Source: Candidatus Parcubacteria bacterium
Lineage (GTDB): Bacteria > Patescibacteriota > Minisyncoccia > Phycocordibacterales > UBA2100
Assembly (NCBI GenBank): GCA_003599175.1
Contig: QZIY01000013.1
Span: 1-57,289 of the forward strand
Direction of reading: 5' to 3'
DNA length: 57,289 nt
Shown: positions 8,888 through 10,321 of the stretch, one piece after another
How positions within the stretch are numbered: the stretch's first letter is position 1
How the letters are laid out: each line of letters begins with the position of its first letter
Notes under the pieces: generated by a model
Seen by the model: the letters and a program-made list of their open reading frames with translations, nothing else
Told to the model about the DNA's origin: nothing
The model's database searches: none
Translations under genes and position numbers: made by a program

Positions 8888-10264
8888 ATGTCCAAAGGAA
8901 CCATCACCCAAATTATCGGCCCGGTCGTCGACGTCCGCTTCGACGAAAAATTGCCTCCTATTAAGAACGCCCTCGAAGTCAAAAAGGAAGGTGATCGCTT
9001 GGTTCTTGAGGTTGCGCAGCATCTCGGCCTCAATCGAGCTCGCTGCATCGCCATGGGTGACACGTCTGGTCTCGCACGCGAAGCAGAGGTAGTAGACACG
9101 GGATCGCCGATCACGGTTCCTGTCGGTGAGGCAGCACTCGGCCGTATGTTCAATGTGATAGGAGACGCAATCGATGGCATGGACAATGTTGGATCCGACG
9201 CGAAGCGCTTGCCGATTCATCAGGATCCACCGGCGTTCTCACGCCAATCCACCAAGGCAGAAGTTTTTGAAACAGGCATCAAGGCGATCGACCTCCTCGC
9301 ACCGTTCATCAAGGGTGGCAAGGTCGGACTCTTCGGTGGCGCCGGTGTCGGTAAAACAGTAACTATTCAGGAACTCATCCACAATGTAGCGTCCGAGCAC
9401 GGCGGCTACTCGGTATTTGCTGGCGTGGGCGAGCGCGTGCGCGAAGGTAATGACCTCTATCACGAAATGAAAGACACGGGCGTCTTGGACAAGACCGCGC
9501 TCGTCTTCGGCCAAATGAACGAAGTGCCGGGTGCGCGCGCTCGTGTGGCACTCTCCGGACTCACCATGGCCGAGGCGTTCCGCGACGAGGGCGGCAAAGA
9601 CGTACTCTTTTTCATGGACAACGTATTCCGCTTCGTGCAGGCAGGTTCTGAAGTGTCTTCTCTCCTCGGTCGCGTGCCATCGGCCGTGGGATACCAGCCA
9701 ACACTCGCAGAGGAAATGGGACTTCTCCAGGAGCGCATCACCTCGACGACCGAAGGATCAATTACCTCGGTACAGGCGATCTATGTGCCAGCCGACGACC
9801 TCACCGACCCGGCACCGGCGACCACCTTCTCGCACCTCGATTCCACCATCGTGCTCTCCCGTGCGCTCGCCGCGCTTGCGATCTTTCCGGCTATCGATCC
9901 CTTGGAGTCTGGCTCGACGGCGCTTACGCCGGAAATTGTAGGCGAGGAACACTACGCGACGGCCAACGAAACGAAGCGAGTGCTGCAGCGCTACAAGGAT
10001 TTGCAGGACATCATCGCGATTCTCGGTATCGAAGAGCTCTCCGAAGACGACAAGCGCCTCGTATACCGCGCTCGCAAAATCCAACGCTTCCTCTCGCAGC
10101 CGTTTAACGTCGCTGAAGTCTTTACCGGCGCCCCGGGCAAATACGTGCCGCTCGCTGATACTGTCCGTTCGTTCGCAGAAATTCTTGAAGGCAAGCATGA
10201 TGCGCGCAACGAAGGCGATTTCTACATGAAAGGCGGCATCGATGAGGTAGTTAGTAGTTCGTAG
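8888..10264 (+). CDS. atpD: F-type ATP synthase beta subunit
   Basis: Start at [18 protein letters not shown]. Walker [10 protein letters not shown] and DNVFRF motifs. TGTATAAT lies 10 nt upstream. Confidence 0.95.
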
Positions 10265-10321
10265 TAAACCCATGAACTCAAAATCCAAACACTACGAACT
10301 ACGAACTACGTTCTACGTACT
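10247..10321 (+). repeat. inverted heptad-repeat hairpin bridging the atpD stop and the atpC start
   Basis: 5' arm GTAGTTAGTAGTTCGTAGT (10247-10265, contains the atpD TAG). 3' arm ACTACGAACTACGAACTAC (10291-10309). 18/19 complementary with a 25-nt loop. The heptads continue (ACGTTCTACGTACT) right up to the atpC ATG at 10322. Confidence 0.7.

Follow-up and report, generated by a model that had tools for sequence, protein, structure and literature searches.

What joins the stop codon of atpD to the start codon of atpC in a 57,289-nt contig of a Candidatus Parcubacteria bacterium (QZIY01000013.1, positions 1 to 57,289; hereafter the window), and what might the joining element do? At this junction the last codons of the gene for the ATP synthase beta subunit are written in tandem 7-nt units, and beyond a short loop an inverse array of such units leads up to the start of the gene for the epsilon subunit. 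These arrays are part of a previously undescribed family of 7-base repeats at gene starts in Parcubacteria, members of the candidate phyla radiation (CPR). As to their function at atpD|atpC, we tentatively favor a start-gating hairpin: the array lies beside a start codon that has no Shine-Dalgarno (SD) site and, together with its inverted copy, would form a hairpin that is melted by the ribosome finishing atpD, which would gate the translation of atpC.

atpD occupies positions 8888-10264 of the forward strand (Pfam ATP-synt_ab) and atpC positions 10322-10567 of the same strand (Pfam ATP-synt_DE_N), the latter encoding an 81-residue epsilon subunit with the N-terminal domain only. The 5' arm of the element (10247-10267, forward) consists of the heptads GTAGTTA, GTAGTTC and GTAGTAA; it writes the last six codons of atpD, whose end reads GAG GTA GTT AGT AGT TCG TAG (E-V-V-S-S-S-stop). 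The TAG stop codon (10262-10264) lies inside this arm and a TAA is next in frame. The protein ends in DEVVSSS, as compared with DEV plus 2-3 residues in relatives. There follows a 25-nt loop (10266-10290, forward) that has an ATG at 10272, with the motif ATGAAYTC common to the loops of the relatives L085 and L086 (relatives are labelled L002-L099). The 3' arm, or start-proximal array (10291-10321, forward), reads ACTACGA, ACTACGA, ACTACGT, TCTACGT and ACT, and runs in phase up to the atpC ATG. Tandem Repeats Finder reports a period of 7 at 10247-10265 and at 10291-10322 (ACTACGA, 4.6 copies), and the arms at 10247-10265 and 10291-10309, each of 19 nt and 25 nt apart, are complementary at 18 of 19 positions (95%).

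When RNA spanning positions 10241-10324 was folded, a minimum free energy of -24.3 kcal/mol was obtained (z = -3.92), and none of 200 dinucleotide shuffles folded as well. The original prediction of tandem heptads in the end of atpD, a 25-nt gap and an inverse array up to the atpC ATG is thus upheld in its repeats, its arms and its fold. The hairpin is imperfect and is made of 5-6-bp blocks (NGTAG with CTACN') with small mismatches between them. Its stem spans -31 to -13 relative to the atpC start, while the AUG itself is unpaired. The further proposal that folding would bring stop and start next to each other at the base of the helix turned out to be wrong: within the 5' arm the atpD stop is found at the end toward the loop, and 12 nt separate the helix from the ATG. 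A register slippage that would bury the AUG is possible, but at 8 kcal/mol worse than the best fold it was set aside. No SD motif was found in the 3' arm or the hairpin, nor did a scan return a promoter-like site there. The sequence following the stem is ACTATGAGTGC, and it has no U tract; a terminator scan of 10247-10321, as of the scp element described below (39677-39770), gave no terminator-like site. At the Rfam gathering score the window yields two tRNAs only, and relaxed searches with both hairpins gave only miRNA-precursor matches far below threshold, as expected of generic hairpins.

As had been predicted, the same architecture recurs, built from a different heptad, between scpA (39758-40483, reverse strand) and scpB (38955-39671, reverse strand, ATG at 39671-39669), both identified by domain scan. 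In the mRNA the 5' arm reads AGTATGG, AGTATAG, GGTATTG, AGTATGG and AGGGA (39739-39773, reverse) and holds the scpA stop (39758-39760) in mid-arm. The 3' arm consists of four (C)CTATAC units (39677-39708, reverse) and ends, as does the helix, 5 nt before the scpB ATG. The arms at 39677-39708 and 39739-39770 fold with -42.2 kcal/mol (z = -5.73). The scpA codons AAG TAT GGA GTA TAG (K-Y-G-V-stop), conserved as protein in relatives, already form the first two heptads of this 5' arm, and for this reason the sequence suggests that the array grew by slippage from what was locally present.

Two further arrays of the CYATACT family, which is the complement of AGTATRG, stand singly without an inverted partner. 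One (four CYATACT units, 23242-23271, reverse) ends 4 nt before the corA ATG (23237-23235), its final TATACT hexamer ending 7 nt before that ATG; the other (25735-25764, reverse) ends 7 nt before the ATG of rpmA, the gene for ribosomal protein L27 (25727-25725). Both lie in divergent intergenic regions, where the first gene of a transcription unit follows. The family has four arrays at three loci in the 57 kb, each made up of four units followed by RGGGNA, whereas the GTAG family is present at one locus in the window and at two to three loci in L085, L086 and L002. A third stop-to-start case, the murG|gltX spacer (34329-34463, reverse), is AT-rich with weakly period-7 inverted arms; the gltX start was set by comparison with relatives, in which this junction measures 1 nt or overlaps, and the spacer is absent in L092 and L095. 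It contains a 44-codon open reading frame (ORF), MNKIQETITKQYSRSNIQIGNSDIAIWNLFGVCILVIGYSFIAL (34325-34459, reverse), that starts 4 nt past the murG stop, has a hydrophobic tail and ends in a TGA overlapping the gltX ATG. Judged by sequence, this ORF could be either a small membrane protein or a relay ORF.

Chance is excluded as the source of the heptad arrays in the window. With arrays defined by at least 16 of 21 matches at a given lag, and lags 4-12 compared with block shuffles, five arrays were found at lag 7 against 0.035 in the shuffles, and none at the other lags. Two 19-nt inverted repeats with at least 18 matches occur in the window (counted without their coordinates) and none in shuffles; in the inverted-repeat search only the atp and scp arms reach the 18/19 level. 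Likewise, where 0.37 occurrences of GTAGNNNGTAG and 0.19 of GTATRGNGTATRG are expected, the window has 6 and 12, respectively. The arrays are also enriched beyond the window. Across 562 kb surrounding atpD in 80 Parcubacteria genomes, 43 arrays were found at lag 7 and at most 11 at any other lag that is not a multiple of it, an excess of about 4-fold. Most are intergenic or at a gene edge (40 of 48), in sequence that is 87.5% coding and 12.5% non-coding; 19 of the 48 have an inverted partner within 130 nt (about 40%), and 19 of the 48 end between -8 and +16 nt from the ATG of an ORF of 60 aa or more. The heptad unit varies from genome to genome.

The orthologous junctions were then compared. 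The best matches of the window's atpD in public genomes are metagenome-assembled genomes of the Ca. Kaiserbacteria group (87% and 86% identical), to which the bacterium of the window is thus close, and an exact-sequence look-up of atpC and L27 returned no matching contig. At this junction, inverted heptad arms reach from the stop of atpD to the start of atpC in nine relatives, among them L002, L004, L022, L082, L085, L086, L087 and L089, and in part in a tenth, L081. The units differ across lineages (GTAGTNN, TAGNNNN, CAGNNNN, GTTTTGM, CAAAATG and CTNGAAC), and despite this the arms are reverse complements of each other in every array-bearing lineage, and in each of them the phase of the 3' array continues up to CT-ATG or AT-ATG. 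Most of these folds are significant, with z between -2.2 and -6.2, the exceptions being L004 (z = -1.1) and L082 (z = -1.7). Where atpD|atpC has a spacer, it is usually structured: z is below -2 in 65% of these spacers versus 34% of the other co-directional spacers of the same loci (Fisher p = 0.004). In an alignment of the seven alignable GTAG-type sequences the core pairs never vary and the other spacer positions are mostly unpaired, while the position adjoining the core covaries, columns 22/93 and 29/86 changing from C-G to A-U. With a score of 0.123, the covariation exceeds that of shuffles (0.060), none of 500 of which reaches it.

An estimate of constraint was obtained from one genome pair only, the collinear L085 and L086. 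Their atpD|atpC heptad spacers differ at 6 of 78 nt (7.7%) with no length difference, and the six changes leave the fold energy as it was (-34.5 versus -34.3 kcal/mol). The atpA|atpG heptad spacers of the pair differ at 1 of 76 nt (1.3%). By comparison, third codon positions differ at 178 of 500 in atpD (36%), 18 of 83 in atpC (22%) and 42-56% in atpA and atpG, and the remaining spacers diverge by 8% to 37%. The loops are conserved as well, and this pattern argues for purifying selection on the element, loops included. The arrays are moreover oriented. The start-proximal strand reads ACTACGN or CYATACT and is G-poor at every locus of the two families, and the TAC-containing G-poor strand is the sense strand before the ATG at all seven independent loci (atpC, atpG, atpA of L086, the gene after atpC in L002, corA, rpmA and scpB; two-sided sign test, about 0.016). 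This asymmetry is real, because flipping an inverted repeat leaves the same arm proximal to the start.

How could such an element act? SD motifs are rare before genes in the window and in its relatives, and -10-like hexamers (TANNNT) lie 5-8 nt before many ATGs, as at enolase, atpD and murG and at scpB of L092 and L096; from these sequences, leaderless messages together with short-range coupling are probably the norm in this clade. Examples of such sites lie at 431-446, 8849-8890, 20670-22290 (reverse) and 34464-35625 (reverse) in the window and at 9985-10003 in both L092 and L096, and some, as at scpB and murG in relatives, fall within the last part of the preceding gene. atpD and atpC lie apart from the remaining ATP synthase genes of the window and have a promoter-like site of their own: a sigma-70-like TTAGCA-17-TATAAT (8849-8877, forward, 10 of 12 positions matched) ends 10 nt 5' of the atpD ATG; a 422-nt gap (8466-8887) and a divergent topA lie upstream of the unit.

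The start-gating reading sets out from a tandem heptad array that lies directly upstream of a start codon with no SD site and, inside operons, an inverted second copy that overlaps the end of the upstream gene and pairs with it. At atpD|atpC the hairpin would sequester the initiation region of atpC from -31 to -13; on reaching the stop within the 5' arm, a ribosome translating atpD would unwind the helix and free the 3' arm and the AUG, so that atpC would be translated only in step with atpD, and less often. Modelling is consistent with this. When the 5' part is taken away, as it would be by a terminating ribosome, the mean pairing probability over the last 30 nt ahead of the start drops to 0.47 from 0.73 in atp and to 0.29 from 0.86 in scp. 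The arrays themselves would probably arise and grow by 7-nt slippage seeded locally and then be retained. Coupling by RNA unfolding has been described for phage f1 genes VII/IX, MS2 coat/lysis and E. coli atpH-atpA (reviewed in PMC12548453). As in those cases, the initiation region of the downstream gene is here taken into a stable stem, part of which belongs to the upstream ORF, a geometry that both the atp and the scp elements fit. The described stems differ in being ordinary sequence with an experimentally shown dependence, whereas the present ones are periodic arrays known from sequence and modelling; furthermore, the AUG here is unpaired and there is no SD site to be masked.

A 17-codon ORF, MNSKSKHYELRTTFYVL (10272-10325, forward), begins 7 nt past the atpD stop and ends in a TGA that overlaps the atpC ATG (ATGA). 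This possible relay ORF, running from within the loop to the atpC ATG, may assist coupling, although this is unproven. The layout is also found in L085 and L086, while in L002, L081, L082, L087 and L089 no ORF bridges the atpD|atpC spacer. As a coding gene it was rejected: a hand count on the alignment of L085 and L086 gave three non-synonymous changes to one synonymous, so that the peptide is not conserved and not under selection.

Several observations weigh against a start-gating hairpin. Of 75 Parcubacteria atpD|atpC junctions, 35 are shorter than 35 nt; nine close relatives (L003, L005-7, L083, L084, L088, L090 and L091), half of those compared, have a tight junction of 2-11 nt, and the element is therefore dispensable. 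In 46 kb from three syntenic relatives (L092, L095 and L096) heptad arrays are absent. The hairpin of the strongly conserved atpA|atpG element of L085 and L086 is not significant (z = -0.24), and the sequence, rather than the pairing, seems to be what is conserved there. Nor was structure found to be selected on the mRNA strand. Among 30 junction hairpins the sense strand folds better in 15 and the antisense strand in 15 (Wilcoxon p = 0.92), and since the two are equally stable nothing in the folds points to the mRNA; an asymmetry of G-U versus A-C pairs, considered as another strand signal, showed no bias. The junction that the hairpin occupies was probably tight at an earlier time, and the contact of the arms with both codons may for this reason be a side effect of insertion. 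Finally, the reading leaves the period of 7 and the conserved 4-5-nt core unexplained. The interpretation in the original prediction is thus borne out in part. A dedicated intercistronic device agrees with the recurrence of the architecture in the window and at the atpD|atpC junctions of relatives, but not with the single arrays before corA and rpmA; coupling fits the modelled melting by a ribosome at the atpD stop, but not the equal stability of the sense and antisense RNA; and the complementarity expected at orthologous junctions is kept with different heptads in array-bearing relatives, but is absent from the nine with tight junctions.

The most serious rival, which we hold to be possible though on the doubtful side, is that the arrays are tolerated, self-generated repeat DNA of the cyanobacterial short tandemly repeated repetitive (STRR) type that fills once-tight junctions with no dedicated role. 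They would originate by 7-nt replication slippage and quasi-palindrome template switching, or as small palindromic insertions, with selection merely removing those versions that block the downstream gene. Such repeats would account for the patchiness just described, both the tight junctions of the nine close relatives and the lack of arrays in L092, L095 and L096, and for the change of heptad unit across lineages. The gain and loss of arrays is ongoing, since L086 has a 65-nt insertion (4500-4568) carrying a single array of four ACTACNN units directly before the atpA ATG that L085 lacks. Junctions also take up unrelated palindromes. At scpA|scpB, where the relatives show no second heptad hairpin and the genes are 9 nt apart in L092 and overlap in L095, L096-L099 all hold the same unrelated GC-rich palindrome of 168 nt (L096 9833-10000; -90 kcal/mol), and hence this junction accepts unrelated hairpin insertions. 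(In L096, a 78%-identical relative, a TATAAT lies 6 nt before the scpB ATG, following the palindrome.) In the window the scp array continues the local K-Y-G-V-stop codons; the equality of sense and antisense stability, with some elements far stabler in antisense, is what insertions in either direction would give, and slippage of the polymerase has been named as the cause of the excess of heptameric repeats among bacteria (PMC4692102). A candidate target-site duplication, ATGAG on both sides of the window element, was rejected: it is absent in L085, L086 and others, and it was treated as chance, being explained by the conserved D-E-V and M-S codons. What speaks against tolerated repeats is constraint. 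Neutral DNA should diverge at least as fast as its surroundings, yet the heptad spacers of L085 and L086 differ by only 7.7% and 1.3% against 22-56% at flanking third codon positions. The units, 38 of 38, conform to [A/C]GTAG[T/a]N, in which a core of 4-5 nt stays invariant and the spacer positions vary; their number is steady at 3-4 without a length difference in the pair, and at 7 of 7 loci they face the start in the same way.

The arrays could also bind an oligomeric protein, each core (GTAG, or GTAT plus RG) being one site on DNA or RNA and the inversion reflecting the symmetry of binding instead of an RNA stem. This is an explanation that we regard as unlikely. The omega repressor, a ribbon-helix-helix protein, offers the model for DNA; for RNA the models are HutP (UAG-N4), TRAP, cold-shock proteins and S1. 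Binding would explain the strict period of 7 and the invariant core with its 2-3 free positions (38 of 38 units), the direct arrays that stand alone at corA and rpmA, and the nearly invariant atpA|atpG element of L085 and L086 that is not a good hairpin. The arrays also sit at positions of leaderless promoters: in the CYATACT arrays of corA and rpmA a TATACT or CATACT ends 7 nt short of the ATG, a putative leaderless promoter spacing that equals the TATAAT-7-ATG of enolase. As precedents, the omega heptads of plasmid pSM19035 are 7-bp units (WATCACW) in direct and inverted orientation near promoters (PMC9499535, PMC2441792), and a heptamer-binding factor has been proposed in Nostoc (bioRxiv 10.1101/2022.06.06.494920). 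Like the omega operators, the units here are non-palindromic 7-bp heptads with a conserved core in both orientations. The omega heptads, however, are contiguous, 7-10 per site, plasmid-borne and of one sequence, whereas here there are 3-4 per arm, the arms lie 25-32 nt apart and the units vary. With units that differ between lineages and two families within one genome, several co-evolving proteins would be needed; the conservation extends to the loops; and no candidate protein was found in a domain scan of about 38 ORFs (about two-thirds of those in the window, all outside 42501-57116), no ribbon-helix-helix gene being identified among them and no promoter being predicted at the atp hairpin. 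An RNA binder would moreover find its motif in one arm only, the 5' arm reading UAG-N4 three times in the mRNA and the 3' arm reading CUA. Sites of the HutP and TRAP type are NAG triplets at fixed spacing on the transcript. A HutP-like UAG-N4 reading was not favored; it fits GTAG, TAG and CAG but not GTTTTGM, CAAAATG or CTNGAAC, and only one RNA arm.

We consider it equally improbable that the element is an mRNA processing, stability or attenuation hairpin, that is, an RNase III site, a stem protecting the 3' end of atpD, or a terminator without a U tract; attenuation would lower the atpC message relative to atpD and match the 3:1 ratio of beta to epsilon. The imperfect duplex of 19-32 bp is suited to this, the enrichment of structured spacers falls at atpD|atpC, a 3:1 step-down, and a heptad element is also present at atpA|atpG, another 3:1 step-down, in L085 and L086. 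Palindromes lacking a U tract separate convergent genes in the window (20623-20658 between leuS and cysS, 1728-1773 between enolase and miaA), and hairpins of this kind may for that reason act as terminators here. Protective or terminator stems normally begin after the stop codon. In the present case the 5' arm lies inside atpD and each ribosome reaching the stop would disrupt the stem. Beyond the empty terminator scan and the lack of a U tract at the site, there is no promoter-like site to restart atpC, stability has no strand bias, and arrays are also found where stoichiometry steps up, before atpD in L036, L042, L052 and L055, as well as before first genes.

A broader possibility, to which we give a similarly low probability, is a gene-start control system not previously described that operates in Parcubacteria without SD pairing and has the heptad arrays as its cis element. 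Directly before the AUG, 3-4 units of 7 nt in phase would be recognized by an oligomeric factor or by the ribosome itself, and the inverted copy in the end of the upstream gene would act as an antisense gate opened only by a translating ribosome. As general explanations, neither a 3'-arm promoter (an acceptable -10 box is missing from the ACTACGN array, and the units of other lineages have none) nor a three-frame stop insulator (a TAG every 7 nt, which holds for GTAG and TATAG units only) could be retained.

Tandem heptanucleotide repeats near gene starts have been known in cyanobacteria since 1990, and later in Xanthomonas and giant sulfur bacteria; to our knowledge they have no established function. 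A report on Calothrix is said to be the original description of the cyanobacterial STRR heptanucleotide repeats. The closest likeness is to the TAACTGA heptamers, which occur as direct repeats in marine Beggiatoaceae and some Cyanobacteria and Bacteroidetes (MacGregor 2015, PMC4679880). Their sets comprise 2-6 tandem units, are mostly intergenic and forward, commonly end about 1 nt before a start, replace the canonical ribosome binding site and in some cases extend back into the 3' end of the preceding ORF; they have been suggested to act post-transcriptionally (PMC4679880). The arrays described here share with them the tandem heptamers, the intergenic and start-facing location, the lack of SD, the G-poor sense strand and the overlap with the upstream ORF, and show the marks of tandem heptanucleotide arrays in general: head-to-tail units, an excess at period 7, and forward, intergenic sets that end near an SD-less start. 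They differ from TAACTGA in three respects. One heptamer dominates a genome there, whereas several unrelated ones are found here (two families in one window and others in relatives); 1 of 170 TAACTGA sets is inverted, whereas about 40% of the present arrays have an inverted partner forming a junction hairpin; and the host here is a small-genome CPR bacterium. In the library searched, no literature linking heptamer repeats with Parcubacteria or Patescibacteria was found.

The GGGAATC and GGGGAYT heptameric repeats of Xanthomonas and Nostoc likewise show an excess at period 7 and occasional convergent pairs (PMC4692102), and a regulatory role of heptamers near start codons has been argued for Nostoc (bioRxiv 10.1101/2022.06.06.494920). 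With these and the STRR repeats the present arrays have in common the period, the intergenic location, the family-specific heptamers and the variation in length and sequence between close relatives; those repeats are found at many loci. The Xanthomonas and Nostoc repeats are, however, G-rich and have been studied as quadruplex formers, which the present units cannot be, and no tie to stop/start pairs is described for them (PMC4692102). A ribosome termination structure is a stable stem just past the stop that insulates against re-initiation (Chemla et al. 2020, PMC7518266). Here, too, a stable structure at the stop is proposed to set how translation passes to the next cistron, but the stop is inside the 5' arm rather than upstream of the stem, and the predicted effect is the opposite, coupling instead of insulation. 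The extragenic palindromes of the REP, BIME and REPIN type (PMC3116915) resemble the present elements in being short intergenic inverted doublets that form hairpins and are patchy among relatives. REPs have units of 20-40 nt without internal 7-nt periodicity and hundreds of near-identical copies linked to a REP-associated tyrosine transposase (RAYT), whereas the copies here differ, and no RAYT or transposase domain was found among the same roughly 38 window ORFs. GTAG is itself the conserved head motif of REPs. Like the omega operators, these palindromes resemble the arrays in individual features alone.

The arrays thus extend the heptanucleotide gene-start repeats to the CPR, and bear on their function in that they are strand-oriented toward starts, often have an inverted copy with which they form a hairpin bridging a stop and the next start, and in one genome pair evolve several-fold slower than synonymous sites. 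In a clade that seems poor in SD motifs and rich in leaderless messages, they could help to start and balance internal cistrons such as those for the beta and epsilon subunits of ATP synthase. If the reading as gene-start control is true, these small genomes would offer a tractable model for the 35-year-old STRR/TAACTGA puzzle; if the arrays are tolerated slippage products, they would serve as strain markers and as a warning for gene callers, given their C-terminal extensions and false small ORFs.

Other features of the window were noted in passing. The gene for leucyl-tRNA synthetase (17212-20622; 1136 aa), whose product has inserted alpha/beta-hydrolase (aa 253-412) and NUDIX (aa 589-691) domains, contains an in-frame period-7 stretch at 19750-19783 that recurs in L086 at 19399-19433. 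The perfect or near-perfect palindromes at 20623-20658 and 1728-1773 are likely to be unusual terminators that act in both directions. Two more inverted repeats, with arms of 16-18 nt around loops of 73-85 nt, lie at 23328-23343/23429-23444, ending exactly at the ATG of an S41 peptidase gene, and at 26191-26208/26282-26299. A LAGLIDADG-domain ORF (2662-3396, reverse) overlaps the region of a tRNA-Leu(CAA) (3248-3330, reverse); it may be the remnant of a homing endonuclease or an over-called ORF. Finally, an intergenic element of about 110-130 nt is present in three copies (24715-24880, 31545-31690 and 36755-36890), which share the motifs TTTCGYGYCTGCGG... GGACAAAGTCCTCG and a multi-stem fold with nine compensatory pairs and have no Rfam match; it may represent a structured RNA specific to Kaiserbacteria, or else a mobile element of palindromic type.

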